Positions 1,644-22,189 of a stretch of 40,285 nt of DNA are shown here, in pieces. Source of the stretch: a bacterium UBP3_UBA3054 (GTDB taxonomy: Bacteria > Auribacterota > UBA3054); assembly GCA_002366995.1 (NCBI GenBank), contig DFCM01000137.1, positions 1 through 40,285 on the forward strand, given 5' to 3'. Below the pieces are notes generated by a model. It worked only from the letters and a program-made list of their open reading frames with translations. It did not search any database and was not told the DNA's origin. The first letter of the stretch is position 1, and each line of letters begins with the position of its first letter. The position numbers were made by a program, and so were the translations under genes.

Positions 1644-3377
1644 TTACTGGATTATTGCCAGACGGAAGCCTGTTCTCCTGCCGTGGAACAGCGGATTGCA
1701 GCGCACACGCTGGGCCGAACGGATATCACCGGCATCAAGGCCGCAGTTTCCGCTTTTTAGAATATTGTCTCCGGAATCCGCGCCGATTGGATCGATCTGG
1801 GGATCGGGGCCAAGATCATAGATATATTTGTCCAGGCAAAATTCCGCCACGTTGCCGTGCATGTCGTAAAGCCCCCAGTTGTTCACCTTGTAGCTGCCAA
1901 CGGTGGTGTGCTCGGTGTTGTAGTCGCCGTGCCCGTCGTTCCAGTCGTATTCATACCTTCCGACCTCGTTCGCCTCTGAGCATTGTATATAGCTGGATAT
2001 GTTTTTGCCGCTGTTCAAAGCCGTCGTCGTTCCCGCGCGGCAGGCGTACTCCCACTGAGCCTCGGTGGGGAGATCCAAAGGCAAGGCTATTTTAGAGCGC
2101 AGAATGCCCATGACAGAGGTCGGATCGACGTGCTTGTTCTTCGGGAAGGACAAGCCTTCGTCCGTCCCGCGGATCCGCTCGTAAGAAATTCTCTCGACAG
2201 GCCGTTCGTCGCCAACGAATTCCGAAGGATTGTCCCCGGTTATAAGCTGATACTGTTTCTGCGTCACTTCGAAAACGCCGATATAGAAACTCTTCGTCAA
2301 AGTGACCTGATGCTGCGTTTCGTGTTCCAGGCGTCCTTCCTCGTCCTCCGGACTGCCCATCATGAAAGTGCCGGGCTCTATAAGGCGCAGCACAAGCTTG
2401 GTGGTCTTGTACTGACTGGTCCATTCGTAAGGCGCTTCGGAAGCGGAAAGGAATTCCACCGGATAATTCGTCGCCTCGGGGCCCTCGGAAAGGTCTATGA
2501 CCATGTATCTGACGTCGTCCTTGTCCCTCTCGATGGCGTCGACCCTTATCCGGAAGGTGTCCGTGTTCACATTTTCCAGCCTGCTGTCGGTCGGTGTCCA
2601 GATAGCGGTGTGCTTGCCGATGCCGAAGACCTGGCCTTCCGTTCCCTCCGGGGCGTCTTGATAGAAGCCCAGGAACTCCGCGCCTTCGCCTTTAAGCTTT
2701 CCCTTAGACGACAGCCTGAAAACTTCCACTCCGTCCAGCGTTCCGTAAAAGCGCACGTCGTACAAAGCGGACCCTTTGGTGGAATCGCCTATCGTATAGT
2801 TTATGGTGACGCTTCTGTCAAAAGGCCAGTTCTGATGAATGCTGACAGACGTAACGTGATTGTTGTCGGCGTATGAGCTCATCGCGCCAAGCGCGGCGAC
2901 TGCCAAAACGACAACAACGCTTATAGTGCGGCGGCGCAGAAGCAGCGCGCCCGCGATGCCGATCAACAGAAAGCCGAAGGGCTCCGGCAGTATCGTCACG
3001 TAACGGCTGAGCGTTTTCGTTTCCACGTCGGTCGTTATCGTTTCCTTAAGAGCATAAGTTTCGTTCTTGGGAAGCGAGGCATATTCGGAATCGTAGTAAT
3101 CCCAGCACACCGCGCCTTCCGCTTCGTCGGAAGTCGTGTCGGAAAATATAAGACCGTACTGCTCCGGATCGGAAGCGACCTCCGCCTTTATCACAAGAGA
3201 CTTCATGTTGCCGCCAGCCAGAGCGCTGCAGTAATAAAGCTCGTCAGTATGCAAAAGCAGGATGGGCTCGTCCGTTATGGGAGCGCCGTTGAACGAGGCG
3301 TTGCTTGACCAGCAATCCTCGCAGAACGCCGCGCCGCAAAAGAGCGCGGCCGCAAAAAACAAAAGCATCTTTTTCAC
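1644..3377 (-). CDS. Exported FGE/SUMF1-domain (formylglycine-generating-enzyme fold) protein with an internal PEP-CTERM-like motif and a second signal-like helix
   Basis: 577-aa ORF with signal peptide MKKMLLFFAAALFCGAAFC. Internal ILPEPFGFLLIGIAGALLLRRR (aa 129-150) is followed by TISVVVVLAVAALGAMSSYA. Next comes a beta-rich module (QNWPFDRSVTINYT). The FGE-type domain has LIEPGTFMMGSP...HQVTLTKSFYIGVFEVTQKQY...LPTEAQWEYACRAGTTT...WGLYDMHGNVAEFC...GFRLA. Confidence 0.85.
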   Translation of the reverse strand: MKKMLLFFAAALFCGAAFCEDCWSSNASFNGAPITDEPILLLHTDELYYCSALAGGNMKSLVIKAEVASDPEQYGLIFSDTTSDEAEGAVCWDYYDSEYASLPKNETYALKETITTDVETKTLSRYVTILPEPFGFLLIGIAGALLLRRRTISVVVVLAVAALGAMSSYADNNHVTSVSIHQNWPFDRSVTINYTIGDSTKGSALYDVRFYGTLDGVEVFRLSSKGKLKGEGAEFLGFYQDAPEGTEGQVFGIGKHTAIWTPTDSRLENVNTDTFRIRVDAIERDKDDVRYMVIDLSEGPEATNYPVEFLSASEAPYEWTSQYKTTKLVLRLIEPGTFMMGSPEDEEGRLEHETQHQVTLTKSFYIGVFEVTQKQYQLITGDNPSEFVGDERPVERISYERIRGTDEGLSFPKNKHVDPTSVMGILRSKIALPLDLPTEAQWEYACRAGTTTALNSGKNISSYIQCSEANEVGRYEYDWNDGHGDYNTEHTTVGSYKVNNWGLYDMHGNVAEFCLDKYIYDLGPDPQIDPIGADSGDNILKSGNCGLDAGDIRSAQRVRCNPLFHGRRTGFRLAIIQ

Positions 3378-7279: not shown

Positions 7280-8484
7280 TCGTCGATCTCCGCGCTTCTC
7301 TTAAGGTACCACATGTCTCTGGCGAAGGAGTAGGGATCGCCGTTGTCTATGAGCATGCTGTCGATGGAATCGACCTGAAGGCTGATGTTGTTCATGACCA
7401 TGAAGGTCTTGACCATGCCGCCGAAGGGCAGATACGTCCTCGGGTCCATGGCCTCGTCAAATATCAAACCGACTGTGTCGCGGGCGGTCAAAGGACCGGC
7501 GATGGGCAGGAAGATATAGCAGCCGGGGCCGATGCCGTAATAGCCGAAGGTCTGCCCGGTGTCCTCGTCGTATTTTTCAAGATCGAACCAGGCTTTGGCG
7601 GGATCGAAAAGACCGCCGATGCCGACGGAAGTGTTGATGAGGAAGCGGGCGGTCTCGACGCCGGCTCCTTTGAATTTAGCCTGAGCGAGGTTGTTTATGA
7701 GTCTTTTGGGCCAGACGATGTTGTGGTCCATTTGCGAGATGCACTCTCTGGCCACGGTGGGAACGACGAACCGGTACCCTTTGCAGACCGGGCCGATAAA
7801 GTAGGTGTAAGCGTAGTCGTTGACGACGAACATGCAGCGGTTGAAGCGCTCGATGGGGTCGTCGACGAAAAGTTCGTCGGAAAGAAGCGGAGCGGAGTCG
7901 TCCGCGTCATAGTCGTGGGAGATCTGGCTGTAATCCATGTAGTCTACATAATCGCCGCCCACAACATTCTGCGGAGGGAGCTCAACAGTTTCCTGTTTGG
8001 GCGGCTTGGGAGGGTCCAGGTCCCGGAGCGTCACTTTCGGCAGAGCTTCAATAAGCTCCACCATATCCGGAGTGTCCAGCTTCGGTGGGTTGACCTTCAT
8101 GTAGACCTTGTGGTCCAGTTCCTTGTACGGCGTGTAGAAGACCACGTTCGTCGTATAGTTCGTAACGCTGACGTTGATGAAATAATCTTTCGTTTCGAAG
8201 CGCCTGACGCCGCCTGTGACCGTCACGGTCTCAATGGCCAGCTTGTAGTAGACGGAATCGGGAAGATTGGCGTCCACTCTTTCCCAGTTGGAACTGGAGT
8301 TCATGACAACGTTCGTAACGTAGCGCGCCACGCTCATGGTCTGCGTCTGCGCGGAGATCTGTCCGGGCGTAACAGTCTGCATCGTAACTTCGGCGTAAGC
8401 GAAAGCGCCGAAGAGGGCCGCGGCGGCCAAAAGCCCGAGGCGGAACCTTAGATCCTTTTTGTTTTCTCTCATTTTTATTCTCAA
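7276..8484 (-). CDS. mlaA: MlaA/VacJ-family protein with a roughly 200-aa N-terminal extension
   Basis: The C-terminal half reads IERFNRCMFVVNDYAYTYFIGPVCKGYRFVVP...INTSVGIGGLFDPAKAWFDLEKYDEDTGQTFGYYGIGPGCYIFLPIAGPLTARDTVG, typical of MlaA/VacJ. The signal peptide ends AFAYA with no lipobox Cys. Confidence 0.8.
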   Translation of the reverse strand: MRIKMRENKKDLRFRLGLLAAAALFGAFAYAEVTMQTVTPGQISAQTQTMSVARYVTNVVMNSSSNWERVDANLPDSVYYKLAIETVTVTGGVRRFETKDYFINVSVTNYTTNVVFYTPYKELDHKVYMKVNPPKLDTPDMVELIEALPKVTLRDLDPPKPPKQETVELPPQNVVGGDYVDYMDYSQISHDYDADDSAPLLSDELFVDDPIERFNRCMFVVNDYAYTYFIGPVCKGYRFVVPTVARECISQMDHNIVWPKRLINNLAQAKFKGAGVETARFLINTSVGIGGLFDPAKAWFDLEKYDEDTGQTFGYYGIGPGCYIFLPIAGPLTARDTVGLIFDEAMDPRTYLPFGGMVKTFMVMNNISLQVDSIDSMLIDNGDPYSFARDMWYLKRSAEIDE

Positions 8485-8599: not shown

Positions 8600-10300
8600 T
8601 TAGCGCCGCTTAATGGCGGCGAAGAGGCCGATGAGGGCCAGGATGCCGAGGAAAGCGGGCTCGGGCAGCGTGCCGGACTTGATCAGCTCGACCTTCAGGT
8701 TGTCGATGTAGTAGCCGTCGGAACCGGAGAAGGTGTAGTTGCGGAACTGCAGGAAGTTCTCGTTGTCGCCGGCGGCGCCGGGAACGTACTCGTTGTCAAA
8801 ATGGTAGGTCTCGCCGTCGAATTCAGCGTAGTGCAGAACAAAGGGGCGGGTCTCGTCGCTGGCAAGGCCGATGGTGAATGTGTAGGCCACGTTGAACCAC
8901 TGGCCGTAGGGGGCCAGATTGGGAACGTCGACGTTCTTGAAGGGTTCGCCGCCCAACTTGATGCCGCCTTCCGTGTGGCTCATGCTGACTTCGCCCATCC
9001 TGTGGCCGAGGTCGGTGCCGAAGACCAGGTACGGCGTGACACCTTCGGGATAGTACATATCCATGGAGACGCGGACGTCGTAGGTGGGATAGATAACGTC
9101 GGGCATGTTGACCGCGGTGTGGATTTGTCCGGCGCCCGTGATCTTCAGGCACTGGTTGTCGGGATCCTCGGGGTCGACCGCGATCGCATTGGCGGCGCCG
9201 GTCTCGCCCCAAGCGGGCTGGAGCTTGACATCGCCGCCCAGGGGCATTCTCTCGAAGTCGGTGGCGTAGAGCGCCCAGCCTAAGCCTTTGTTGCCGTTCT
9301 GAGCCACGACGGAATGCGTGAAGGATTTGTCTTCTTCGCCGTTATAATAGGAATAGGTGATGGTGGCCGCGGGCATGTTGCGGACTTGTTCGGGCAGATT
9401 GGCGGTAAGTCCGATGGAAACGGGTTCGCCGGGGGCGACTTCGACCTGCTTGGCGAATTCGCCGTCCATGGAGAGCCAGTTGTTGTCGGAATCGACCGTA
9501 ACGTCGACCGTGGCGCTGTTGCCGGTGGCGGAGATCACGGTTTCAAGGCCCAAAGTTTCGCCGAGCTTCACGACGCCAGGGGCTGTGGCGGTCACGTTGG
9601 CGGTGGGCGGAACGTCGACGAATTCGCATTTCAGATCATCGACGTAGAAGTGGCCCTGGCCGCCCCAAATGAAGAAGCGCAGACGACGGAATTTGTCGGG
9701 AGCCGTCTGGCTGCCGATGGGGATGTTCAGCCCGGTGTAGGTCTCGTCGCCGAAGGTGCATTCGCGGAGGAAGGCGCCGTTGGCGGTGGTGTTGATAGTG
9801 TAGCTGAAGTAGACCCATTCGTCGCGGGGCTCGGAATTGGCAACGGTGTACTGCGGAGAGCAGGCGGAGAAGCGGACGCCGAACTGACCGTCCTTCTTGA
9901 TGAAGTGGTTCTCGCCCAAGCCGTCGTTGCTGCCGAAGATGATGTCGCCGGTGTATTCGCCGGACTCGTCATACTTCTGCGTCGGGCGCTTGACCATCAT
10001 GGACACCTTGTAGTCGTACTTGGCCGACTGTCCGCCAGTGTTGTCGATGTTCCAGTGAATGCCGAACAGGCCGCTCGCGTTGACATGCAAACACTTGTCG
10101 CTGTCGTAGCCGCCTTCTTCGACGAGGGCGTTGCCGTCCGTGCCGGGGGTGCCGTAGGCGGTGGTCCAGCCGTTCTGGCCGATAACGTTCGTGCCGACCG
10201 CGTAGCCTTCGAAGTTATCTTCGACGATCGTGGTGGGGTCAGCCTGCGCCATGGCCGCGCAAAGCAGAAGCGCGGTGGTTAAAACTAGAGCTTTTTTCAT
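8600..10300 (-). CDS. Secreted PEP-CTERM-anchored protein with two lectin-like (ConA/LamG-like) modules
   Basis: Signal peptide MKKALVLTTALLLCAAMAQA and C-terminal TLPEPAFLGILALIGLFAAIKRR-stop, a classic PEP-CTERM. There is an internal duplication: EDNFEGYAVG...HFYVDDLKCEF and ATDFERMPLG...GYYIDNLKVEL. Confidence 0.85.
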   Translation of the reverse strand: MKKALVLTTALLLCAAMAQADPTTIVEDNFEGYAVGTNVIGQNGWTTAYGTPGTDGNALVEEGGYDSDKCLHVNASGLFGIHWNIDNTGGQSAKYDYKVSMMVKRPTQKYDESGEYTGDIIFGSNDGLGENHFIKKDGQFGVRFSACSPQYTVANSEPRDEWVYFSYTINTTANGAFLRECTFGDETYTGLNIPIGSQTAPDKFRRLRFFIWGGQGHFYVDDLKCEFVDVPPTANVTATAPGVVKLGETLGLETVISATGNSATVDVTVDSDNNWLSMDGEFAKQVEVAPGEPVSIGLTANLPEQVRNMPAATITYSYYNGEEDKSFTHSVVAQNGNKGLGWALYATDFERMPLGGDVKLQPAWGETGAANAIAVDPEDPDNQCLKITGAGQIHTAVNMPDVIYPTYDVRVSMDMYYPEGVTPYLVFGTDLGHRMGEVSMSHTEGGIKLGGEPFKNVDVPNLAPYGQWFNVAYTFTIGLASDETRPFVLHYAEFDGETYHFDNEYVPGAAGDNENFLQFRNYTFSGSDGYYIDNLKVELIKSGTLPEPAFLGILALIGLFAAIKRR

Positions 10301-10802: not shown

Positions 10803-12665
10803 ATGCGCAGATCATTCCAATTGTGGCTTTTTGTTTCCGTGGCGCTCGCTTTCGCCGCGCTCTTTTATCTGACTTACTATCTTCAGACAAGGGAGGCTTT
10901 CGATTCCGCGGAAGCCATGATCGAGCTGAGGATGGAAGACGCCAAGAAACAGATATCCATAAACGAGAACAACCTTAAAGCCGTGCTTGACATCTGCAAC
11001 GCCTCGATGGCCAACGACATCAAGACCGTGGCTTATATCCTAGCCTGCGCGCCGGTCTTCGCCACCAACTCCTACAAGTTGGAAGAACTGCGCCGCGTCA
11101 TGGGCTACGACGAGATCCACGTCATCAACAAGCACGGGCTTATCGAGAACTGCGCTATCGATCCCGTCATTGGCAACGCCGAAACTTACATCGGCTTCAA
11201 CCTTAAGCTTCACGCCCAGTCCGAGCCCTTCGTCCACGGGATCGGCAAAAAAGATTTCGTGCTGGTCCAGCCGCCCCTCCCCAGGGGAATGGACCGCAAG
11301 CTCTTCCAGTACGGCGGCGCTTCCAGACTCGATGACGAAGGCATCGTGCAGCTGGGCATCTCCGTCAGCTTCCTGGAAAGGGCGATGGAGAACAACTCCC
11401 TGGCGACTTTGTCCCCCGGATTGCGCATCGGCGTCGGCGGCGAGATATTGATAGTGCGCGGCGAAAAGATCGTCGGTGCCGCCAGAGTCGATCTTGAAGG
11501 CCGCACGTTAACTTCCGTGGGCTTCGACCCCAAGCTCATCTCCGAGCTCCATCAGGGCGAAGGCTCTTTTTCCGCCGAGATAGACGGCGTGGATTTCTTC
11601 GGTTTGTATGTTCAGAGCGGCGACCTTACGCTCCTCGGCGTCATGCCGAATTACGAAATTACGAAGAAAAGGAACAGCATCGCCATTCAGCTTGTCATTT
11701 CCGCCCTGGTCTTGATGCTGGTCGTCTTCCTCTCCGTGTCGAAGCTCGTCCAGGTCATAGTGATCGACGGCATCGACCGCATCAACGCCTCGCTTGGGCG
11801 CATCACGGCCGGACACCTCGACGAGAAAGTTACGGAAAACCGCTCCAAGGAATTTGAGGAGCTTTCCGGCGGCATCAACACGACGGTGGAAGCCCTGAAG
11901 GGCGCCATCGCCGCTGAGAAGACAAGGCTGAACAGCGAACTGGAGTTCGCCAGAGCCGTCCAGGTCTCCGCGCTGCCCCAGATCCACGACGACCCGAGGT
12001 TCGAGATCTACGCCTCCATGGAAGCCGCGAAGGAAGTCGGCGGCGACTTCTACGACTTCTTCATCGTTGACGAGTCGCACCTCGCCTTCCTTATCGCCGA
12101 CGTTTCCGGCAAAGGCATCCCGGCCGCCATGTTCATGATGAACGCCAAGGCGCAGCTGAAATCGAACATTCTGAACAATCCCCAGAAGCCGCTGAGCGAA
12201 GTGATCTATGAGGTCAACAACAGCATCTGCGAAGGCAACGACGCCTGCATGTTCGTGACCGTCTTCGTCGGAGTTTTGGATCTGAGGACCGGGCTCATGA
12301 ACTACGTCAACGCCGGCCACAACGCGCCCATATTGAGGCGCGCCAACGGCGACGCCTCCTGGCTGCCCGTTGAGAACGGCTTCGTGATAGGCGGCATGGA
12401 CAGCGTCGACTACATCCAGGAATCCATCACCTTGTCTTCCGGCGACGGCATACTCCTTTATACCGACGGCGTGACGGAGGCTATGAACCGCCAGCTCGCC
12501 CTCTACGGGGACGACAGGCTGATAAACCTCATGGACGGCCCCATTATGCGCTCCGCGCCGGCTGACTGCATTCTTTGCGAACTGAAGAGCGACGTTCTGG
12601 CCTATGCCGACGGCGCCCCGCAATCCGACGATATAACTATGCTCTTCCTGCATTATTTGGGATAA
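10803..12665 (+). CDS. Membrane sensor PP2C/SpoIIE-family phosphatase (RsbU-like): TM, periplasmic sensor domain, TM, HAMP, PP2C
   Basis: TM1 is WLFVSVALAFAALFYLTYYL and TM2 is IAIQLVISALVLMLVVFLSV, with about 270 aa between them. A HAMP-like segment (INASLGRITAGHLDEKV...EFEELSGGINTTVEAL) is followed by SpoIIE motifs (EVGGDFYDFF, LIADVSGKGIPAAMFM, LLYTDGVTEA, SDDITML). Confidence 0.85.
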   Translation: MRRSFQLWLFVSVALAFAALFYLTYYLQTREAFDSAEAMIELRMEDAKKQISINENNLKAVLDICNASMANDIKTVAYILACAPVFATNSYKLEELRRVMGYDEIHVINKHGLIENCAIDPVIGNAETYIGFNLKLHAQSEPFVHGIGKKDFVLVQPPLPRGMDRKLFQYGGASRLDDEGIVQLGISVSFLERAMENNSLATLSPGLRIGVGGEILIVRGEKIVGAARVDLEGRTLTSVGFDPKLISELHQGEGSFSAEIDGVDFFGLYVQSGDLTLLGVMPNYEITKKRNSIAIQLVISALVLMLVVFLSVSKLVQVIVIDGIDRINASLGRITAGHLDEKVTENRSKEFEELSGGINTTVEALKGAIAAEKTRLNSELEFARAVQVSALPQIHDDPRFEIYASMEAAKEVGGDFYDFFIVDESHLAFLIADVSGKGIPAAMFMMNAKAQLKSNILNNPQKPLSEVIYEVNNSICEGNDACMFVTVFVGVLDLRTGLMNYVNAGHNAPILRRANGDASWLPVENGFVIGGMDSVDYIQESITLSSGDGILLYTDGVTEAMNRQLALYGDDRLINLMDGPIMRSAPADCILCELKSDVLAYADGAPQSDDITMLFLHYLG

Positions 12666-12680
12666 ACAAGGAAACGACCT

Positions 12681-13091
12681 ATGAACGTAGCTGTAACTCT
12701 GCAATTCTCGGCTGAAACCAAGAACCTCCCCAATGTTCTGGAACAACTGGACACCCAGCTTCTTGCCGCGGGCTGTCCGGAGGACGCCAGGATGCAGCTG
12801 GCCGTGGCGGTGGAGGAGATCTTCGTCAACATCGCCAACTACGCCTACGAAGGCAAGCTGGGCTCCGCTACCATAAACATCAAGGCCGACGCCCACAAGG
12901 CTACCGTTTCTTTCGCCGACAGCGGCTTCCCCTACGATCCCCTGAAGAAGGAAGACCCCAACATCGAGCAGGCCGCGGAGGATCGTCCGATAGGAGGACT
13001 CGGCATCTTCCTTGTCAAGGAAATGTGCGACGAGGTCCATTACGAGCGCCGCGGCGACATGAACATTTTGACCATCGTCAAAAAATACTGA
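12681..13091 (+). CDS. Anti-sigma regulatory factor, GHKL Ser/Thr kinase (RsbW/SpoIIAB-like)
   Basis: 136 aa with N-box-like AVEEIFVNIANYAY and G-box-like GGLGIFLVKEMCDEV. It completes an antagonist/phosphatase/kinase partner-switching set. Confidence 0.8.
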   Translation: MNVAVTLQFSAETKNLPNVLEQLDTQLLAAGCPEDARMQLAVAVEEIFVNIANYAYEGKLGSATINIKADAHKATVSFADSGFPYDPLKKEDPNIEQAAEDRPIGGLGIFLVKEMCDEVHYERRGDMNILTIVKKY

Positions 13092-13094
13092 CCG

Positions 13095-14069
13095 TCATTC
13101 CACTTCGCGGAATTCTCCTTTTCCGTGGGACGCCACTCTTTTTAAAAAGGCGCAGCCCCTCTCCGCTTTTTCCCTTCTCTTTACGCTCCCGTCCCTGGCC
13201 GGCCTGTAGGCGATAGCGTTTATCTGCGTCGCTTTTTCCCTTCTGCTTTCGTCGATCAGGGCCATTATCCTTCTTTCGTGGACGATTTCGTCCTCTCCCT
13301 GCAGGTACGGCGGGTCATCGCTTATCAACACGACCGCGTCGGGCTTGAGGGAGAGCGCGAACTCCAGGGCTTTTATGGGCGTTGAGCCGCTGGTGTCGGG
13401 GTCGTTGCCGCGGTTGACTTTCATTTCCTTGGCAAGCCAGGAGGAGAGTTCCCTTTTGGCGCTTTTGGTGGCGAAGCAGAGGTTCGTCCGGAAAGGGAAC
13501 TTCCCGTCCGTAAAGAGCACGACGTTAAAGAGCGTGTCGGGATGGAACAGCTCCACGGTCTTCTCGGCCTCTTTCCTCACCGCCTCGAAAACGCCCTTCT
13601 GGACGATCGAGGAGGAGGAGTCCACCAGAATGACGATCGACCGCGCGGCGATCCGTTGTCCCAGGAATTCTATCTCGCCCCAGCCGTCGCCGCCCTTGGG
13701 CGCCTTGCCGAGCCCCGCGTCCCCCAGGGAAAAACTCATGTTGTCGCTGAGGGAGAGCCCTTCGCTTTCCCTCTTTACGTTGGGCTTGACCATTTCCGGT
13801 TCCGGCAGCGTCAGACTGCTCGTGTCACACTTGGCCGAGACGCGCATGTTTTTAGCCATGCTCTGCCCGTATGATGCCGCCTTCTTGCACTGCAGCCTGT
13901 GCTTCAGTTCCCTAGCCTTCAGTTTCGGCCCGGCCGCGCTCGCCGTGAAGAGCGGTTTCGGCGGCTTTACCGCCCGGTAGACTACTATCCCTCCCGCCAC
14001 GAGAAAGAGAGCAATATGGATGCCTACGCTCACGATTAGGCTGCCGTAGCGTGAAAAGTCAATCTTCAT
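13095..14069 (-). CDS. TonB/TolA-like membrane anchor fused to a periplasmic von Willebrand factor A (MIDAS) domain
   Basis: The N-terminus SLIVSVGIHIALFLVAGGIVVY carries the Ser-x3-His signature (compare E. coli TonB SVCIH), followed by KPPKP. The vWA domain has VILVDSSSS (DxSxS), GSTPIKALEFAL and AVVLISDDPP. The gene sits in the tonB position after exbB-exbD-exbD and overlaps the upstream gene by 11 nt. Confidence 0.7.
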   Translation of the reverse strand: MKIDFSRYGSLIVSVGIHIALFLVAGGIVVYRAVKPPKPLFTASAAGPKLKARELKHRLQCKKAASYGQSMAKNMRVSAKCDTSSLTLPEPEMVKPNVKRESEGLSLSDNMSFSLGDAGLGKAPKGGDGWGEIEFLGQRIAARSIVILVDSSSSIVQKGVFEAVRKEAEKTVELFHPDTLFNVVLFTDGKFPFRTNLCFATKSAKRELSSWLAKEMKVNRGNDPDTSGSTPIKALEFALSLKPDAVVLISDDPPYLQGEDEIVHERRIMALIDESRREKATQINAIAYRPARDGSVKRREKAERGCAFLKRVASHGKGEFREVE

Positions 14070-14502
14070 CTTCCCCGCAGCTGAAAGTTACGTTCGTCAG
14101 CCCCGCCTTGTGGCAGCAGTCCAAGACAAGCGCGATCCTCTCGTGGAGCGCTTCGTCATCGGCGGAGACCGAGACCAGGGCCGGGATCCTAGCGCCCCGG
14201 GAAGCCGCTTGGAAGCGCAGCAAGGTCTCTGTGAGCTCGGCGAGGTCCCGGCTTTTGGCCCTAACGAAGGTCTGCCCGTTCAGAACGACCGCTCCTTCTG
14301 GGTCGATCTCTATGACCTGCTCGTCCGGCATGACGACCGCTTCCGTCTCACGGCCTTCCCCAGGCAGGGAAAAACCCAGGTCCCCTTCCGTCTTGTTCAA
14401 AGAGCAGGCGGACATAAAATAGATCAAAAGCAGAAAGGTGCAGTCTATCATGGAGGAGATGGGAAAGCTGATCTTCCCCGTTTCTTTTTTCGCTCTTCTC
14501 AT
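14059..14502 (-). CDS. exbD: ExbD/TolR-family protein (paralog 2)
   Basis: MRRAKKETGKISFPISSMIDCTFLLLIYFM, a typical ExbD N-terminus with TM, then a periplasmic domain. The start shares 1 nt with the upstream stop (TGATG at 14500-14504). Confidence 0.85.
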   Translation of the reverse strand: MRRAKKETGKISFPISSMIDCTFLLLIYFMSACSLNKTEGDLGFSLPGEGRETEAVVMPDEQVIEIDPEGAVVLNGQTFVRAKSRDLAELTETLLRFQAASRGARIPALVSVSADDEALHERIALVLDCCHKAGLTNVTFSCGEDED

Positions 14503-14912
14503 CAGCTCTCCTCGTAAACGGAAAAGATTATTTTCGCGAGTCCCGCTTCGCCGCAGAGCTTCACAAATCTTTTCGTTACCGCGCTCTTCGCTCTTCTGTC
14601 GATCCTTAGGAGCACCGTGCCCTTGGGCGTCGCGCGCGCGAAAGTTTCCAACTCCTTCTTCGCTTCCTCAACGTCGACTTTCCTCCCGTTGATGAGGCAG
14701 CTCTCGTCACTAAGGATCGTCAGTGCGCAGAAGGCTTCCTCGCCTTCCCTCTTCCCGAAATTCTTGACTTCCGGCAGCTCCAGCTCTTCCGGAGTAGAAA
14801 GATTTTGCATGGTAGCGCTGCACATGAAGAAGATGAGAAGCAGAAAGACCATGTCGATCATGGGCGCCATGTCCAGCTCACACTCCGCTTTCTTTTTCCT
14901 TTGCCGCAGCAC
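14502..14912 (-). CDS. exbD: ExbD/TolR-family protein (paralog 1)
   Basis: MLRQRKKKAECELDMAPMIDMVFLLLIFFM. The gene overlaps the exbB 3' end by 35 nt. Confidence 0.85.
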   Translation of the reverse strand: MLRQRKKKAECELDMAPMIDMVFLLLIFFMCSATMQNLSTPEELELPEVKNFGKREGEEAFCALTILSDESCLINGRKVDVEEAKKELETFARATPKGTVLLRIDRRAKSAVTKRFVKLCGEAGLAKIIFSVYEES

Positions 14913-15681
14913 TTCTTCTCCTTTTCGGTTTCTCTTTTTCCTCCTCTTCCTCCAGGCCCAGCCTTATCCTAACTTTCTCCCTGGCCAGCCCGGATCCCGC
15001 GTAAACGTCCAAGAGTTCCGTCGCCTTGGAAAGCAGCTCCCTTTCCCTGATGTCGAAGCGGCTCTTCAGAACGAAGAAAAAGACCATGGCCGGGATGCCG
15101 ACGACCAACCCGGCGGCAGTCGTAAGCAGCGCCTCGCCGATGTCGCCCGCCAGCAGTTCCGGCTTTCCCATGCCGCCCAAGCCGATCTTGGAAAAGGCTT
15201 TTATCATGCCGCTTACCGTTCCCAACAACCCCAGCATCGGGGAGAGCGCGGCGATCGTCGAGAGCAGGTTGAACCAGAACTGCATCACGATGCTTTTTCC
15301 CTCCCACTTTTCGATTATCGCCTCCTCCGCCTGTTGCCGCTCCTCCTTGTCGAGAGGATACTTCAGCTTCTCTACTCCCGGTGTCAAAACGAGCGCCAGA
15401 ACGCTTTTTCCGATCGCCAAAAGGTCCAGCGCCGCCTTCAGATCGCGCCTGTAAAGCGCCTCTTCCAGGCGCTCCGGAAGCCCTTTGGGAATAAACTTTC
15501 CTTTGCGCGTCTCGAAGAAACTGTAGACGGTAAGCCAAACTACCACGCAGGAACAGAGCGCCAGAGGGTACATGAGAGGCCCTCCCGTCTTGAAAAGCCC
15601 CAAAGCGGTGGTGGATAAAGACTCCTCTTCCCCGAAAGCGGAAAGGGAGAAAAAAGCAAGTAAAACAAGCAAAACTCTCAC
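14878..15681 (-). CDS. exbB: MotA/TolQ/ExbB-family proton channel subunit
   Basis: SPMLGLLGTVSGMIKAF and IGEALLTTAAGLVVGIPAMVFF motifs, an N-terminal signal-like segment, and a GTG start overlapping the upstream TGA (15678-15681). Confidence 0.9.
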   Translation of the reverse strand: MRVLLVLLAFFSLSAFGEEESLSTTALGLFKTGGPLMYPLALCSCVVVWLTVYSFFETRKGKFIPKGLPERLEEALYRRDLKAALDLLAIGKSVLALVLTPGVEKLKYPLDKEERQQAEEAIIEKWEGKSIVMQFWFNLLSTIAALSPMLGLLGTVSGMIKAFSKIGLGGMGKPELLAGDIGEALLTTAAGLVVGIPAMVFFFVLKSRFDIRERELLSKATELLDVYAGSGLAREKVRIRLGLEEEEEKEKPKRRRSAAAKEKESGV

Positions 15682-16517
15682 GGCAGCAGCTCCTCGGTGT
15701 AATTATTTATCAAATGCGTTTTGGTATAGCGGTTTCCAATCTCCAGCCAGCGCAGGACTAGCTTCCTGTGGCGGCGGAACTCGACTTCCTTGTATTCGTT
15801 GGTCAGGATGCCGGCCAAGCGCACGGCAGTTTCCATATCGCCTGACCTTAAGGCGCAGACGCTCCCCAAGAAAAGGCAGTCCGCCCCGACTTTCCTTTCC
15901 AACGCGAAGAAAAGATGCGGCGGAAGAAGGTAAAAGAGCGCGTTCCTATAGTCCTCCTCCCGGTGCAGGATCCGGCCCATATAGTAATGCCAGAGCGCCG
16001 CCGCTTCGTCTCCTCCAGCCTCCCAAGCATACTTTTCCAAAAACGCCCTGGCTTTTTTGTGATCTCCTGTCTTCCAGTGGCAGATTCCCAGATACAATCC
16101 CGCCATTTCGTCATGACTCTTTAAAAAATAGCGCTTGGCTTCCTGATAGCGAGAGCAGTTGAAAAGCAGTTTCCCGTAGACGAAATACGGCGCCTCCGCT
16201 CCGCCCGGCCAGCTTTCGGCCCAGGAATAAAGCTCCCACAATTCATGCCCCCTTTCCAGCGCCCGCTTTTGTTTCGGCCCTCTGCGGTAAACCATTTCCG
16301 AAAGCTCACGAAGCTCTACCGGATCGCTTAGCCTCAATTTCGTCACCTGCTCCTTTTTCGCCCGACACTTCATAAGGGATCCGTCCTTGGCGTAGCGCTC
16401 GTAGACGATCGCGTTCTCTTCGTGCTCCAGCAATCTTCCGCTGAAGCTCTGCCCGGACTGCAGCGTCAGTCTGATAGGCAGAAGCACTGACAAAAATAAA
16501 AGGCATTTTCTTTTCAT
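15678..16517 (-). CDS. Secreted helical-repeat (TPR-like) protein, 279 aa
   Basis: I start it at MKRKCLLFLSVLLPIRL, the ATG at 16515-16517, which forms an ATGA overlap with the upstream stop. The helical repeats are rich in Y/W/A/L (YQEAKRYFLKS, HKKARAFLEKY). The 14-aa longer track ORF was rejected. Confidence 0.65.
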   Translation of the reverse strand: MKRKCLLFLSVLLPIRLTLQSGQSFSGRLLEHEENAIVYERYAKDGSLMKCRAKKEQVTKLRLSDPVELRELSEMVYRRGPKQKRALERGHELWELYSWAESWPGGAEAPYFVYGKLLFNCSRYQEAKRYFLKSHDEMAGLYLGICHWKTGDHKKARAFLEKYAWEAGGDEAAALWHYYMGRILHREEDYRNALFYLLPPHLFFALERKVGADCLFLGSVCALRSGDMETAVRLAGILTNEYKEVEFRRHRKLVLRWLEIGNRYTKTHLINNYTEELLP

Positions 16518-19003
16518 AAATACCCTTTCTCCTTGGCTTCCTTTTCCGTCGCGGCCCAATCGTTCGTCCTTCCCAGCGCCCGAAAGCAGAGAATGCTCTT
16601 CTCATAGGCTTTCCCAACTTCAGCCTTTTCCCCCTGGTACATGACGTAAACGCGCTGGTAATAGCCGAGCGCTTCGCCGTATTTTTTCTCCAGGAAATAG
16701 CAGTCTCCCGCCAGCAGAAGCAAAGCGGCTTTCTTTTCCGGCGCCAATCCTTTTTGCCCCAAAAGCGCGAGAAACTTCTGAAGCGCATCTTCTCTTTTGC
16801 CCTGCTTGAAAAGCGCAAGCCCTGAAAGCTCGTCCCTGCGGAAAATATCCTCCAGGCGCTGGAAGGAATCTTCGCCTTCCTCCAAATACGTTTCCATCTC
16901 CCGATAGCGCTCCTTGCCAAGACTTGTCTCAGCCAAAAAGAGCCAGCCCTCGGAGGCCGCCGGATCTTTTGGGAACTCTTCCGTCAAAAATTCCGCCAGT
17001 TCCTCCGCCTCCTTCCCCTTCTTTTCCTCCGACAGGATGAGCCGGCGCCTTAAACCCTCCGGCCCCAGGGAACGAAACTTAAGTTTAACCAGCTTCGCGT
17101 CGTCCTTTAAAAACAGGCAGGCTTTGGAAAAAGCTCCGGTCCGGCCTCTTTCCAATTCTAATTGCGCTTCCTTCCTGAGCGCTTCCTTGTACTCCGATGC
17201 GTCAACCGCTAACTTAAGCCCAACTTCCAGCGCGCTCAGCGCTTCCCGCTCAACTATGTCGTCTTTCGTCTTCAGCCAGAGTTTGCGCGCCGCAACTCTG
17301 CCTTTTTCCGTTTCACCCATAAGCTTGCAGGCCTCCAGATAATTCTGCAGCGCCTCGCCCCTGAAACCCGGCGTTCCCTCCGACAGCAGGTACGGTTCCA
17401 GCAATTCCATTTCCAGCCGGGGCCTTCCCAGGACCTTGTAGATCTCCGCGGCTTTCAAAAGCGCGTAGCAGGCGAAATTGTCCGGCCGCTCATCGCCCTC
17501 GGGCAGATTCTCCCTGTAGGCCGCGAGCGCTTCCGCAAGCTCCCCCAGAGCGCCCAGGGCGTCGCCTAAGGTGTTCTTCACCTCTTTAGCGTTATCGTAC
17601 TCGGGGTAGCGCTCCAAGACCGCTCTTAGGGCCTTCTGGGCCCCCAAATAGTCCTCCGCCCGGTAGAGTATGGCCGCCAGACGGAACTCCACGTCCGCCA
17701 AATGAGTGTTCTTGGGATATTTCTTCTTGAAAGCAGAGAATGTTTCCCGCGCCGTTTCGTCCAACCCTTGGTAATATTCCAGCATGCCTTTCCAATACGT
17801 CGCCTCGCCCGACAGCTTGTGCTCTTCCCCAAATTCCGCCAGCCATTTCTCCATTTCCCCTAAAGCCGCCTTCTCCTCCCCCATGAAACCCAGGGCGCAG
17901 GCGGCGTAAAGTTTTGCCTCGCCCAGCAAAGAGGATCCCTTATATTTTTCCGCGTAGGCCAAAAAACGCTCCCGCGCCCGCAAATATTCCCCCGAGCGCA
18001 TGGCGCCCTGAGCCGGCAGCAACGCCAGCGCTTCCGTTTCATCGTCCTTCAGCTTTTCTTTTAACAGCTCCTCCACGCCCCTGTCCAGACGATCCAGGTA
18101 TCCGCCCTGCAGACAGGCGTAGCAGCCAAGTTTTCTTAAACCGACCTTCACGAAATCGTTGGTCGTTATCCTTATCCCTTCCTCGCAATAGACCGCGCAT
18201 TCGGGATAATACGAGGCGTCGTAGCAGGCCCTGGCCAATCTCGCCAGCCTCGCCTCTCCGCAGGAACTCTTGTCCGCCAGGCGGTAAGCGCTAAGCGCGC
18301 CCGCGAAATTATTGCTCATGTACATGACGTCACCCAGCCGCAGCGCCAAATAATGCCTCAGCGTTTCCGCTTCTTCCCTTTTGTTCAGCGCCAAGCCTTC
18401 CCGCAGATACGCAAGCGCCGGGTCCGCCTTCCCTGTTTCCAAAAGGCACCAGGCCAGATGCAGACTAGAGTGCGCCCGGAACTTCTTTTCGTCCTTCACC
18501 TCTTCCCAATAGGGCAGGGCCTCCTCGTAGCGCCCCGCCTTCGTCAGAGCCAGGGCCAAATTAGCTTTCACCTCCGCCGCCTCGCCAACGCCCTCAGACA
18601 AAAGCGCGCGGAAAACATCCGCGGCGGACACAAAACGCCCGAGCTCCATTTCCGCCAGGCCGAATCCGAAGCGCGCCTTCCCCGCTTCCGAAAAATCAGG
18701 ATAAGCCTTCCCGACTTTATCGAAAAGCTCCGCCGCGTCCTCGAACCGCCTGATCCTGTAGGCCGCCACGCCTCCGAAATAAGTCATGCGAGGAAAATAA
18801 TTCGACATCGCCTCCTCTTCCCCGTAGCGCTCCAAAAACGCCCGCGCCGCCAGAAAGGCGTTGGTCGCCTCTCCTCTTTTCAGCGAAACGTAAGTAAAAC
18901 GAAAAAGTCCCGCCGAGTCGAGATCGTCAAGCTCTCCCCCAAAAACAAGGCCGAGCCACAGGACACTTATTCCAATAGCGATAATAATTTTCTGACCGCG
19001 CAT
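16514..19003 (-). CDS. Large TPR-repeat protein (829 aa) with an N-terminal signal/anchor
   Basis: The N-terminus is MRGQKIIIAIGISVLWLGLVFG. Many TPR-like helix pairs follow throughout (AYRIRRFEDAAELFDKVGKAYP, GRYEEALPYWEEV, AILYRAEDYLGAQKALRAVLERYP and others). Confidence 0.8.
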   Translation of the reverse strand: MRGQKIIIAIGISVLWLGLVFGGELDDLDSAGLFRFTYVSLKRGEATNAFLAARAFLERYGEEEAMSNYFPRMTYFGGVAAYRIRRFEDAAELFDKVGKAYPDFSEAGKARFGFGLAEMELGRFVSAADVFRALLSEGVGEAAEVKANLALALTKAGRYEEALPYWEEVKDEKKFRAHSSLHLAWCLLETGKADPALAYLREGLALNKREEAETLRHYLALRLGDVMYMSNNFAGALSAYRLADKSSCGEARLARLARACYDASYYPECAVYCEEGIRITTNDFVKVGLRKLGCYACLQGGYLDRLDRGVEELLKEKLKDDETEALALLPAQGAMRSGEYLRARERFLAYAEKYKGSSLLGEAKLYAACALGFMGEEKAALGEMEKWLAEFGEEHKLSGEATYWKGMLEYYQGLDETARETFSAFKKKYPKNTHLADVEFRLAAILYRAEDYLGAQKALRAVLERYPEYDNAKEVKNTLGDALGALGELAEALAAYRENLPEGDERPDNFACYALLKAAEIYKVLGRPRLEMELLEPYLLSEGTPGFRGEALQNYLEACKLMGETEKGRVAARKLWLKTKDDIVEREALSALEVGLKLAVDASEYKEALRKEAQLELERGRTGAFSKACLFLKDDAKLVKLKFRSLGPEGLRRRLILSEEKKGKEAEELAEFLTEEFPKDPAASEGWLFLAETSLGKERYREMETYLEEGEDSFQRLEDIFRRDELSGLALFKQGKREDALQKFLALLGQKGLAPEKKAALLLLAGDCYFLEKKYGEALGYYQRVYVMYQGEKAEVGKAYEKSILCFRALGRTNDWAATEKEAKEKGYL

Positions 19004-19054: not shown

Positions 19055-22000
19055 TTATTTAAAACGCCCTATGGTAAAGGAAAGCGAGTAACTGCGTGCG
19101 GTGTCGATTATGTCGCGCTGCATGGGCGGAGGTCCGCAGCTAGCGCCTCCCAATCCCCTGGTCTCGGCGTAGATCCCGAACTCCGTCTTCCCTGAAGGCG
19201 GTAATTCCGGCGGATGGGTGTATTCTATCAGTTCCAAAGGCGAATAAGGGTTGACGCAGATCGCGAAAGGCTTGCCCAAAGAAGCAAAGTTAAGCGCACC
19301 GCTTTCTGTCTTAAAAGTGATCTCCCGGACGTCCTCTCTGTTGCCGCTCTCCTGGTTGCGGGCGTAGGGGAAGTAGAAATCCTTCGCCTTCAGAGAATAG
19401 CGGCCCAAAAAGGCGCCGGACTTCCTGTCGCGGTAGTTCTCATAAGGCCCCGCACCGTAATATTCCACTTCCGGATCTTCGGTGTCCAAAACAAAATGAT
19501 AGCCGATCCTGGTGAGCTCGATTTTCGTTCCGGAGGGTTTTATCTCGCTTTCGCAAACAAGCTTTCCGTCTTCCCTGATCGTCCACTTGGTCGTGACCTC
19601 GAAGGAAATGTCGTTTAAAGCTTCGCCGCAATATACAAGCTCGGCCTTCACGCCTCCGTAATTATTGAGTTCCCAGCTGCTCCCTCCCCTCCAGCGAACC
19701 ACCGACTTGAAGGAAAAGCCGTCTTCTTCGCAGGAGGGTATAGAGATCGATCTCACCTCCGGTTTCGGTTCGATCAATCCCAGTTTTGCCAATTCCCGGC
19801 CCAAGCCTTCCTCGTTAGAGCTGGGCGCGCGGAAAACATCCAGCGTCATTGGCGCCTTAAGCCATTCTTTGTCCAGCTTTTCTCCGGTTCTAACGGACGA
19901 AAGGGTGCCGGTCCTCATACTGAACGCGTAGCGAACGCCCGGCCGGGTGAAAATATATTCCTCCGGGGAGAAAGTAAAGTCCAGCTTGTTTGTTTCCGAG
20001 TTTGGCAGTTTCGGCAAACCTTCGGCTTTGCGCGCGGGATAGTCGATCTGGTCCTCAGCCAGACAAACCAAGTCTTTCACGAATCTCACCCTAAGCGAGA
20101 CCTCGCCAGGTTTTTCCAAAAGATCTATAACCTCAGGCGGAACGTCCGTAATCTTCGTCTCGCCAGGACCCAGCGGCCCGTCCAACGTTAAGCTTCCCTC
20201 CGCTTCCTTCCGTCCATCCCGGAAAGCCGTCCAGACGTAGGCCACGCCCCGGTCGTCCACGAAATAGTTTTTGTTTTTCAGCGCGATCTTGCTTGGATCG
20301 TTCGTGGCGAAGGCCGCCCAGTTCTGAAACACGTGGCGGATCTCGTAATAGCCGGGCTCCTTTGTGCGGTCGGACAAAACGCAGCCGTTCATCACGAACT
20401 GCCCGTCGTTGGGATAATCGCCGAAATCGCCGCCGAAGGCAATAATGCGCTTCCCGTCCTTGTCCATGTAAAGCCCCTGGTCCACCCAGTCCCAAATAGT
20501 GGCGCCCATTATGACGTCCGAGCTTTCTATGGCGTCCTGGTAGTCCTTCAAATTCCCCATGGCGTTGCCCATGTTGTGGGCGTATTCGCAGATGTAGAAA
20601 GGCTTTTGGGCGTTGACGTCCGCGGCCTTCTTCCGCACCCAATCGACGCTGGGGTACATACAGCTTTCAAGGTCGGCGCAGGACCAGTCCCGCTCGTAGT
20701 GAACGGGACGCGTGGTGTCGCGTTTCTTGATGGCCGCGTAGGCCGCGGCGAAATTCTCGCCGGGTCCCGCTTCGTTGCCCATGCTCCAGATGATGACGGC
20801 GGGATGGTTCTTGTTCCTTTCCACCGCGGCCAGGTTGCGGTCCACCGTGGCCTTTTCCCATTCCTTGCAGTGCGAGAGCGAGCTTTCCCCGTAGCCGTAG
20901 CCGTGGGATTCCACGTTGGCTTCGTCCACAAGATAGATCCCGTTCACATCGCAAAGATAATACCAGTAGTCGTCCTGGGGATAGTGGGAATTGCGCACAC
21001 AGTTGCAGTTCGCGCCCTTTAGTTCGCGGATATCCAGTTCCTGCGTTTCAGGCGGCACGTAGTGCCCGTACATCGGGTGCGTCTCGTGGCGGTTCGCGCC
21101 TTTCAGTTTTATTTTCTTACCGTTCAGGCAATAACGCCCGTCCTTGATCTCGCTCACGCGGAAGCCAAACAAGGAAGAAACGAATTCAGCTCCGTTCCCC
21201 AGTACGATCTTGTAGCAGTTGGGCTCCTCCGCGCTCCAAAGCCGAGGCTTCTCAACCACGAAGCTTTTTTCTTTTCCGCTGTAAACAAGCTTGTCGTCAA
21301 AGGTGTACAAATAAACCGTCACGTCCGCGTCGCAATCGACCTTAACGCGCCAGTCGCCGGAAAACGCCCCTTCCTTAACGGGCGCGGCAGTCACGAAGAA
21401 ATCGCGGATCCTCTCTTTCGGCCGGCGCAGCAGCCAGGCGGAGCGGAAAATTCCCGAAAGCCGGAACATGTCCTGGTCCTCGAGATAGCTGCCGTCCGAA
21501 TAGCGGTACACTTCCAAAGCAACCACGTTGCTGCCCGGATGCACGAAGGGTGTCACGTTGAATTCCGCCGGAGAGCGGCTGTTCTTGGAGAAGCCGACGT
21601 ATTCTCCGTTCACCCAAAGATAGAAGAAACTGTCGACGCCGTCGAATTTGAGAAAAACATCATCTTTTTCCCAACCCTCAGGCAGATCGAAGTCGCGCCT
21701 GTAGCTTCCGACGGGATTGCGCGCGGAATAGTTGGTGTACTCTTTGGGCGGTTCCCCCATGACACACGATCCGCCCGGCCTGTCTATCGCAAAGGGATAG
21801 CGGATGTTCGTGTAGAGCGGCGTTCCCCAGCCGCCTTTCCCGTTGGCGCCCATGGCCTGCCAGGAGCAGGGTACCTTGATGACGGGCCACTCCGAAACGT
21901 CGTATTCCGGCTTGTAAAAATCCTTGGGCCTGGAATCAGGATCCTTGGCCCAGTTGAACCGCCAATCGCTGTCGGAATCCAAGCATAATTGCCGGTCGGA

Positions 22001-22189
22001 ACTGCGCGGTAAAATTTTGAGCGCTCCCTCCAGCGTGGAAAAAGATGAAAAAGACGCGCGGACCGCTTCCCTGCCAAAAGAAAGCGCTTGATTGTCCTGC
22101 CATTCGTCGCCGCGTGGCAACGAGCCTATAGTGGTTAGCGTGCTGATCATAACCGTGGTAAAGAATAAAGCTGCTCTCATGGAGAGCAT
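19055..22189 (-). CDS. lacZ: GH2 beta-galactosidase (LacZ-like), exported
   Basis: 1044 aa with IIWSMGNEAG (acid/base Glu) and YICEYAHNMGNAMG (nucleophile Glu), matching LacZ motifs IIWSLGNESG and CEYAHAMGNS. It has a C-terminal Bgal_small_N-like region and an N-terminal hydrophobic signal. Confidence 0.9.
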   Translation of the reverse strand: MLSMRAALFFTTVMISTLTTIGSLPRGDEWQDNQALSFGREAVRASFSSFSTLEGALKILPRSSDRQLCLDSDSDWRFNWAKDPDSRPKDFYKPEYDVSEWPVIKVPCSWQAMGANGKGGWGTPLYTNIRYPFAIDRPGGSCVMGEPPKEYTNYSARNPVGSYRRDFDLPEGWEKDDVFLKFDGVDSFFYLWVNGEYVGFSKNSRSPAEFNVTPFVHPGSNVVALEVYRYSDGSYLEDQDMFRLSGIFRSAWLLRRPKERIRDFFVTAAPVKEGAFSGDWRVKVDCDADVTVYLYTFDDKLVYSGKEKSFVVEKPRLWSAEEPNCYKIVLGNGAEFVSSLFGFRVSEIKDGRYCLNGKKIKLKGANRHETHPMYGHYVPPETQELDIRELKGANCNCVRNSHYPQDDYWYYLCDVNGIYLVDEANVESHGYGYGESSLSHCKEWEKATVDRNLAAVERNKNHPAVIIWSMGNEAGPGENFAAAYAAIKKRDTTRPVHYERDWSCADLESCMYPSVDWVRKKAADVNAQKPFYICEYAHNMGNAMGNLKDYQDAIESSDVIMGATIWDWVDQGLYMDKDGKRIIAFGGDFGDYPNDGQFVMNGCVLSDRTKEPGYYEIRHVFQNWAAFATNDPSKIALKNKNYFVDDRGVAYVWTAFRDGRKEAEGSLTLDGPLGPGETKITDVPPEVIDLLEKPGEVSLRVRFVKDLVCLAEDQIDYPARKAEGLPKLPNSETNKLDFTFSPEEYIFTRPGVRYAFSMRTGTLSSVRTGEKLDKEWLKAPMTLDVFRAPSSNEEGLGRELAKLGLIEPKPEVRSISIPSCEEDGFSFKSVVRWRGGSSWELNNYGGVKAELVYCGEALNDISFEVTTKWTIREDGKLVCESEIKPSGTKIELTRIGYHFVLDTEDPEVEYYGAGPYENYRDRKSGAFLGRYSLKAKDFYFPYARNQESGNREDVREITFKTESGALNFASLGKPFAICVNPYSPLELIEYTHPPELPPSGKTEFGIYAETRGLGGASCGPPPMQRDIIDTARSYSLSFTIGRFK

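Follow-up and report, generated by a model that had tools for sequence, protein, structure and literature searches.

A conserved six-gene ExbB/ExbD cassette with a predicted vWA-headed force transducer in the bacterium UBP3_UBA3054

Introduction

TonB and TolA were long the sole known carriers of inner-membrane proton energy to the outer envelope of diderm bacteria. A further class, the "vWA force transducers", named after their von Willebrand factor A (vWA) domain, was described by genome analysis in June 2025 (Mol Biol Evol 2025;42:msaf138, PMC12204202). Here, we analyze a 40,285-nucleotide (nt) stretch of DNA from the bacterium UBP3_UBA3054 (contig DFCM01000137.1 of assembly GCA_002366995.1, positions 1 to 40,285; hereafter, the window), in which six overlapping minus-strand genes at 13095-19003 code for a tetratricopeptide repeat (TPR) protein, a secreted protein that we call protein X, one ExbB homolog, two ExbD homologs, and a 324-aa candidate vWA force transducer with a TonB/TolA-type anchor.

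Published transducers of the transmembrane-helix (TMH) type have a single N-terminal transmembrane (TM) helix with the TonB/TolA SHLS motif, a disordered region with a "stator box", a domain II of ~100 residues, and a C-terminal vWA domain. In bacteria of the Planctomycetes-Verrucomicrobia-Chlamydiae (PVC) group the reported gene order is TPR, tolQ-like, two different tolR-like genes, vWA, and in AlphaFold3 (AF3) models of family members, the conserved His sits on the motor in the manner known for TonB and TolA. A second family, TPH-vWA (Idiomarina type), has an Asp-bearing trans-pore helix in the TolQ pentamer, no SHLS motif, and no exbD, and is found in Verrucomicrobia also. The function of these proteins was stated as not known, and gliding motility was floated as a guess (PMC12204202). 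MIDAS, the metal-ion-dependent adhesion site of vWA domains, is nowhere mentioned in that paper, and its text makes no mention of an extra gene between the TPR gene and the tolQ-like gene. Our literature search found no other description of vWA transducers and no experimental follow-up. A parallel is provided by the Myxococcus Agl-Glt machinery, in which CglB, a vWA adhesin, works together with a TolQR-like motor, the TonB-like GltG/J, and TPR proteins (PMC12204202, PMC9946355).

A vWA/MIDAS-headed third class broadens the picture of envelope energization; since it was computationally proposed in 2025, the present locus adds a member, not a concept. An initial annotation of the window, made from the DNA sequence, knew of no described system with this architecture, and the novelty so suggested is overturned by the 2025 paper. 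What the locus adds to the published class is the state of the MIDAS, a sixth conserved gene, linker motifs (F41, L88-P89, and FFG), and strong conservation. Possible guides for first experiments are the intact metal site in most of the family, the six-gene unit with its second secreted beta-barrel/TPR protein, and linker motifs that are more conserved than the motor-binding His. The carrier itself is an uncultured bacterium of the ruminant gut.

Results

Architecture and family membership of the 324-aa protein

An AlphaFold2 (AF2) monomer model of the 324-aa protein was built on nine homologs. As can be seen from Table 1, the protein is divided into a TM helix, a disordered linker, and a vWA domain. 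KPPKP stands at residues 35-39, and further linker motifs are PPKxxF (ending in F41), K49/R53/L55/H57, L88-P89, and a Gly-rich stretch; just beyond the linker, an F/L-F/L-G motif at positions 135-137 (FFG) marks the start of the vWA fold. The MIDAS is complete, with D150, S152, and S154 in DSSSS (residues 150-154, codons 13608-13622), S229/T230 in GST (228-230), and D251 in SDD (250-252).

In Pfam and NCBIfam scans, no named vWA subfamily was above threshold, and VWA matches were sub-threshold only (PF00092, E 0.0046, 17.6 bits, cutoff 23.8). When the AF2 model was compared with the PDB using Foldseek, all top matches were vWA domains, including ITIH1, 4fx5, integrin I-domains, the anthrax toxin receptor ANTXR2, and the Bacteroides BatA-like 4jdu. 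A comparison of the family profile with PDB sequences gave the ITIH4 vWA domain with E 3.5e-14, plus BatB and BatA (3ibs and 4jdu are among the fold and sequence matches). No TonB_C domain (PF03544, E<=0.1) and no TolA domain was found in the protein with Pfam and NCBIfam. There was no TonB or TolA C-terminal fold, TolA domain III included, among the top Foldseek matches, and residues 132-324 make up a single vWA fold that extends to the C-terminus.

We compared the protein with two Tichowtungia founder sequences of the published class, which were transcribed from supplement 1 of PMC12204202 (they were machine-read, and a few residues may be wrong). The A2 family hidden Markov model (HMM) scored the founders at 153.7 and 144.3 bits, and in pairwise alignments, which begin at the TM helix and extend halfway into the vWA domain (209 residues), the window protein is 23-24% identical to them. 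The cluster representatives nearest to the founders (P0053, P0117, P0152, and P0153) were retrieved by the A1 profile with whole-library E-values of 1.9e-22 to 4e-14. When homologs were sought with a wide profile in a word-indexed search, all proteins obtained were PVC-labelled or unlabelled, with no Tichowtungia entries.

As in the Tichowtungia aerotolerans type, there is one TM helix with Ser-x3-His, a putative post-helix motif, a predicted disordered domain II of ~100 residues, and a C-terminal vWA domain, and the transducer gene follows genes for a TPR protein, one TolQ-like protein, and two distinct TolR-like proteins in what appears to be an organism of the PVC type. The position of F41 (in PPKPLF) corresponds in the alignment to about residues 55-60 of the founders, named as the stator box in the published description. 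The differences are that Tichowtungia has two transducer genes in tandem, whereas the window has one; that the founders have 474-476 aa, while the 324-aa protein is without the long insertion; and that they read D-A-N-K-L or D-A-D-K-R at the DxSxS position, in contrast to the complete MIDAS (DSSSS...GST...DD) of the window protein. A further difference is a conserved beta-barrel/TPR gene that separates exbB from the TPR gene in the window cassette and goes unmentioned in the text of PMC12204202. Sequence, architecture, and synteny together establish the 324-aa protein as a member of the published vWA force-transducer family.

Conservation across the family

In 1.84 billion cluster representatives, searched exhaustively with a profile, 1613 relatives of the 324-aa protein reached the E<=1e-3 level; at E<=1e-10, there were 222. 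Conservation was counted in an alignment to the family HMM that comprised the window protein, represented by its one-residue variant P0001, and the 149 representatives ranking next. In the TM anchor, H18 was found in 113 of 137 aligned representatives (82%) and Ser or Thr at position 14 in 109 of 137. Linker positions were conserved at F41 (116/138, 84%), L88 (112/139), and P89 (127/134, 95%), and the start of the vWA fold at F135 (134/149) and G137 (138/149). The corresponding MIDAS counts were 139/149 for D150, 133/149 for S152, 119/149 for S154, and 121/143 for D251. The entire D-S-S...D set was kept in 99 of 130 aligned representatives, about three quarters, so an intact metal site is usual in this family, and the founders deviate from it; within the close subfamily of the window protein, the MIDAS residues are invariant. 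Judged by these alignments, proteins with the anchor-linker-vWA architecture are a large, coherent family.

The L88-P89 pair (nt 13803-13808; consensus S-L-P-x-L/M-P), in the middle of the linker, is kept in ~95% of the 150 cluster representatives, compared with 82% for the motor-binding His. The L-P motif might dock the TPR proteins.

In the nearest sister branch, P0015-P0018, whose members are 31-37% identical to the window protein, the linker motifs and the vWA domain are kept, while the TM His is replaced by hydrophobic residues, and some members also lose MIDAS serines (DKSKS, DLSYL). These sequences suggest that in some sub-lineages coupling takes another form or the link to the motor is gone.

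The six-gene cassette

Table 1. Genes of the cassette and regions of the 324-aa protein (window coordinates)
Feature	Position	Strand	Properties and basis
TPR protein, 829 aa	16514-19003	minus	first cassette gene; N-terminal hydrophobic segment, residues 6-24 (signal peptide or anchor; hydropathy)
Protein X, 279 aa from ATG, predicted secreted	15678-16517	minus	signal-peptide-like N-terminus, beta-barrel, TPR-like repeats
ExbB/TolQ/MotA-family proton channel subunit, 267 aa	14878-15681	minus	N-terminal signal-like segment, charged C-terminal tail; PF01618
ExbD/TolR paralog 1 (ExbD1), 136 aa	14502-14912	minus	TM helix with conserved Asp (MIDM); PF02472
ExbD/TolR paralog 2 (ExbD2), 147 aa	14059-14502	minus	TM helix with conserved Asp (MIDC); PF02472
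vWA force-transducer candidate, 324 aa	13095-14069	minus	last cassette gene
TM helix, residues 9-33	13971-14045	minus	S14-x3-H18 motor-binding motif, no Asp; AF2 helix and hydropathy
Disordered periplasmic linker, residues 34-131	13677-13970	minus	AF2 low confidence; predicted local distance difference test (pLDDT) <50 at residues 65-132
vWA domain, residues 132-324	13098-13676	minus	alpha/beta, pLDDT near 80 (AF2); Foldseek; profile vs PDB

The six genes are linked by overlaps that were read directly from the sequence and agree with the open reading frames (ORFs): ATGA at 16514-16517 between the TPR gene and the gene of protein X, GTGA at 15678-15681 between the latter and exbB, 35 nt (14878-14912) between exbB and exbD1, TGATG at 14500-14504 between the two exbD genes, and 11 nt (14059-14069) between exbD2 and the vWA gene. 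The GTG start of ExbD1 is supported by the Pfam ExbD match, which begins at residue 6. For protein X, a TTG start at 16559 would give 293 aa; homologs have 279 aa, which favors the ATG. The six genes probably form one translationally coupled cassette.

A gene of glycoside hydrolase family 2 (GH2), a full LacZ-type enzyme according to Pfam, occupies 19055-22189, and its stop at 19055 is 51 nt from the start of the TPR gene at 19003. A promoter/terminator scan gave no usable signal between these two genes, nor past the vWA gene. Past the vWA gene, the next gene is convergent (HATPase_c_2), and the two stop codons are only 3 nt apart, too close for a terminator to fit between the two units. The convergent unit (10803-13091, plus strand) codes for a partner-switching pair, namely a phosphatase of the HAMP-SpoIIE (PP2C) type and a HATPase_c_2 kinase similar to RsbW/SpoIIAB. 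The cassette is surrounded by core genes, including lpxK, coaBC, gmk, and rsfS, with dnaA/dnaN 14 kb away.

Motor and TPR proteins

The ExbB homolog matches MotA_ExbB (PF01618) with 86.3 bits, above the Pfam threshold, and ExbD1 and ExbD2 match PF02472 with 81.3 and 56.8 bits, both above the gathering score. All three are far under the NCBIfam equivalog cutoffs (ExbB, TolQ, ExbD, TolR, and MotA) and are therefore not assignable to Ton or Tol. The proton-binding TM Asp is present in both ExbDs of the window and in all cassette ExbDs compared. The cassette ExbB is 31-48% identical to ExbB of four related loci (L001 and L015-L017, described below). ExbD2 of the window is 35-48% identical to ExbD2 of these loci versus 23-30% to their ExbD1; since ExbD2 is orthologous across all related cassettes compared, the two-ExbD arrangement is ancient. 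From these comparisons, ExbD1 and ExbD2 appear to be an ancient, probably heterodimeric pair.

The 829-aa protein has Pfam matches to TPR_16, TPR_2, TPR_6, and YfiO (BamD/YfiO). The AF2 model of protein X (pLDDT 81.6) consists of a small five-stranded beta-barrel (residues 13-63) followed by TPR-like helical repeats; a weak Pfam TPR_2 match was also found. Foldseek returned TPR proteins only, with PflB, a flagellar motor scaffold of C. jejuni, at the top (E 6e-4). Homology of protein X to its L001 and L012 versions is detectable (E 8.5e-6 and 2.8e-7), while profile-profile comparison with the equivalents in Verrucomicrobia-type loci was not significant (hhalign probability <5%). In the distant loci, the protein in this slot is thus best described as a positional equivalent whose ortholog status is not proven.

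Thus, most of the initial annotation holds. It had proposed the six overlapping genes with the junctions listed above, the ExbB-ExbD-ExbD identities, a Ser-x3-His anchor, a vWA domain with complete MIDAS in place of a TonB C-terminal domain, and a 279-aa secreted helical-repeat protein, to which the AF2 model adds the small beta-barrel. Its observation that the window lacks a TonB-dependent receptor, tolB, and pal also stands: among the domains of the long ORFs of the window there is no TonB_C, TolA, TolB, Pal/OmpA, Plug, or TonB-dependent receptor domain. Of the three outcomes that the annotation had named as refuting its reading, none occurred: the C-terminus has no cryptic TonB_C or TolA-III fold, the anchor and the gene neighborhood are conserved in relatives, and the vWA gene is not in a Bat-type cluster.

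The cassette in related genomes

The order TPR (~900 aa), ~300-aa protein, ExbB, ExbD, ExbD, vWA is also present in locus L001, whose vWA protein is 45% identical to that of the window. Loci L012 and L014 (vWA 43% and 40% identical) have matching partial hits in the six-gene order. In the Verrucomicrobia-type loci L015-L017 (vWA 21-27% identical), the six-gene order is kept, and the flanking genes are unrelated. The TPR slot is occupied by a 912-946-aa gene in L001 and L015-L017 and by partial tblastn matches in L012 and L014; the slot of protein X holds a 307-362-aa gene in L001 and L015-L017 and a tblastn match in L012. The cassette is thus kept where the vWA proteins are 21-45% identical, and the adjacency of the vWA gene and exbD2 is retained across distant relatives.

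The initial annotation had considered a link to glycan uptake or processing through the GH2 gene, the position of which it gave correctly. This proposal finds no support beyond close relatives. The GH2 neighbor is present only in ruminant-gut metagenome-assembled genomes (MAGs) with 92-100% identical vWA proteins and is absent beside L015-L017; the L001, L012, and L014 contigs end just upstream of the TPR gene. Because GH2 is adjacent in close ruminant-gut relatives only, it is not a conserved part of the module. Compared across MAGs of ruminant origin, vWA, ExbB, and ExbD stand out from the surrounding genes by higher conservation; in L010, for example, identities are 92% for vWA, 91% for ExbB, and 86-91% for the ExbDs, compared with 68-78% for SpoIIE, GH2, and TPR.

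Two observations on individual loci may be added. In L001, an extra 117-aa gene without a Pfam match (2948-3301, plus strand) lies between the TPR gene and the gene of protein X; the window has no room for such a gene, since the TPR stop overlaps the start of protein X. L010 and L011 are contigs JAFYXV010000013 and JAFYXV010000005 of the same MAG, RGIG7520; the whole region is present in both, with identical match statistics for every gene, and the doubling probably stems from redundancy in assembly or binning and not from a genuine duplication.

Proposed mechanism

The features described above support the idea of a motor driven by the proton motive force (PMF) that pulls through a vWA head, as the initial annotation had proposed, and we consider this model as a whole to be likely. 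In the model, an ExbB pentamer would surround the ExbD1/ExbD2 pair, each ExbD with its proton-binding Asp, in an inner-membrane proton motor of the 5:2 type. The TM helix of the transducer would dock outside the ExbB ring via Ser14/His18, an arrangement taken from the AF3 models of other family members (PMC12204202), and the short post-helix motif around F41 may engage the periplasmic domains of ExbD. The flexible linker of ~100 residues would span the periplasm, and the vWA head would grip an acidic residue of a partner via its complete MIDAS metal site, so that proton flow would be converted into a pull on this partner. As scaffolds or docking partners, the most likely candidates are the secreted TPR proteins of the first two cassette genes.

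Several points weigh against this model. S14 and H18 of the SHLS motif are kept, but the Leu and the second Ser are out of register (A25, V29), and the window protein, like most family members, has Ala/Val at these positions; the Tichowtungia founders, judged by eye from the published sequences, share this partial pattern. The AF2 monomer shows no beta-strand at the putative motor box around F41. The nearest sister branch, P0015-P0018, is without the His, and MIDAS residues are missing in some members, including the Tichowtungia founders, and neither feature is therefore universal. No phenotypes are reported for any family member in PMC12204202.

A housekeeping envelope function, such as Tol-like tethering or remodelling of the outer membrane, seems to us the likelier role, ahead of gliding motility and nutrient uptake. 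It is favored by the conservation of vWA, ExbB, and ExbD, by the core-gene setting, and by the fact that the cassette is kept while its flanks change.

Comparison with the Ton system shows both the common ground and the difference in the head. Shared are the ExbB and ExbD families, the TM Asp of ExbD, the S-x3-H anchor, a flexible linker, and the linkage of transducer and motor genes in one operon. The window cassette differs in having two ExbD paralogs and no TonB C-terminal domain, and there is no TonB-dependent receptor in the window. The TonB head acts by beta-strand exchange, while the head encoded here is a metal-dependent adhesion domain.

Alternative explanations

The reading closest to the PMF-driven vWA transducer is a specific version of it, with the same mechanism, in which the cassette would be the motor half of a split Tol-Pal-like apparatus. 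In PVC lineages in which TolA is not found, the vWA transducer would stand in for TolA domain III, with TolB/Pal or some other outer-membrane tether as its target, while a CpoB-like TPR protein would coordinate this activity with cell-wall synthesis. We regard this version as possible, though rather unlikely in so specific a form. It is consistent with the score of the 829-aa protein, which also matches BamD/YfiO, against the NCBIfam model tol_pal_ybgF (TIGR02795, YbgF/CpoB), 96.9 bits at a cutoff of 90.1, but this TPR match is generic and is summed over three stretches. Among the NCBIfam models, the cassette ExbB scores best with TolQ (64 bits versus 51 bits for ExbB models). The supplement of PMC12204202 lists tolB-pal in Kiritimatiella glycovorans with the remark "unable to annotate TolA", and reports Tichowtungia without TolA or TonB being found. 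The housekeeping-like conservation and the core-genome location also fit. Thus, a TolQ-like channel, the S-x3-H anchor, and a TPR protein with a CpoB-type repeat signature are shared with Tol-Pal/CpoB (YbgF). On the other hand, TolA domain III, TolB, Pal, and YbgC have no counterparts in the window, no tolB, pal, or ybgC adjoins any related cassette examined, and the TPR protein has 829 aa and is encoded first, not last. Furthermore, TolA III binds TolB through beta-strand addition and not through a metal site. An extended form of this idea, which we consider speculative and doubtful, would make the cassette the only periplasmic force transducer in PVC lineages without detectable TolA/TonB. 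There, it could supply the motor half that a split Tol-Pal-like system lacks, with the MIDAS capturing an outer-membrane or cell-wall partner and the linker L-P motif docking the TPR scaffold proteins. If true, this would be a third, mechanistically distinct coupling of the proton gradient to the outer envelope, with a metal site instead of beta-strand exchange.

A role like that of Agl-Glt in Myxococcus, powering adhesion or gliding-type movement on surfaces, seems improbable to us. The two systems have a similar parts list: a TolQR-type PMF motor, TonB-like anchor proteins, large TPR proteins, and a vWA domain with MIDAS (PMC12204202, PMC9946355). In Myxococcus, however, the vWA domain is on a separate outer-membrane lipoprotein in a machinery of ~17 components, while in the window it is fused to an inner-membrane anchor within a set of six conserved genes. 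Tethered by a linker of ~100 residues, such a vWA domain cannot reach the surface. Moreover, no Glt-like outer-membrane or periplasmic genes are present in the window or in the related loci, and the cassette, which is conserved in a housekeeping-like manner, occurs widely in genomes of the Verrucomicrobiota type.

The 324-aa protein could also be a BatA/BatB-type or MoxR-associated vWA protein that merely lies beside exbBD, or a misread canonical TonB; either case is very hard to reconcile with the data. BatA and BatB structures are indeed among the vWA matches (4jdu, 3ibs), and the Bacteroides aerotolerance operon likewise combines membrane-anchored vWA proteins with MIDAS and TPR proteins. 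Bat operons, however, contain MoxR and DUF58 and no ExbB/ExbD, while the window contains no MoxR or DUF58 genes, and its vWA gene overlaps exbD2, an adjacency kept in distant relatives. As far as sequence analysis goes, a Bat-type cluster, which the initial annotation had listed as a refuting outcome, is excluded on these grounds. The S-x3-H helix is conserved; to our knowledge, Bat anchors have not been described as carrying this TonB-type motif. A canonical TonB is excluded by the lack of a TonB_C domain and by the vWA fold that takes up the whole C-terminal half. Least probable of all is that the vWA protein is a motor plug or "dimer" component of the TPH-vWA family, which does exist in Verrucomicrobia (PMC12204202), since its helix has S-x3-H and no Asp, and two conserved Asp-bearing ExbD genes are adjacent. 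An anti-phage defence system (e.g., Zorya, with its MotAB-like motors) was rejected, as PADLOC gave a generic TPR match only.

Other genes of the window

On the plus strand, dnaA (33036-34403) and dnaN (34795-35889) coincide with a fall in GC content to 0.46-0.49 at 32-36 kb; therefore, the window probably covers the region of the chromosomal replication origin. A minus-strand gene at 8600-10300 codes for a 566-aa protein with a signal peptide and with a C-terminal LPEP plus hydrophobic tail, a PEP-CTERM-like sorting signal; it has no Pfam match. Directly downstream (7276-8484, minus strand) is the gene of an unusually long MlaA (402 aa), in which the MlaA domain covers residues 208-397 only. 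In L001, a 44%-identical MlaA is encoded beside an unknown ~560-aa gene, a few kb from the cassette. Finally, two minus-strand genes at 10-1338 and 1644-3377 code for proteins with FGE-sulfatase (SUMF1-like) domains, which fit a PVC-type, sulfated-glycan-degrading organism.

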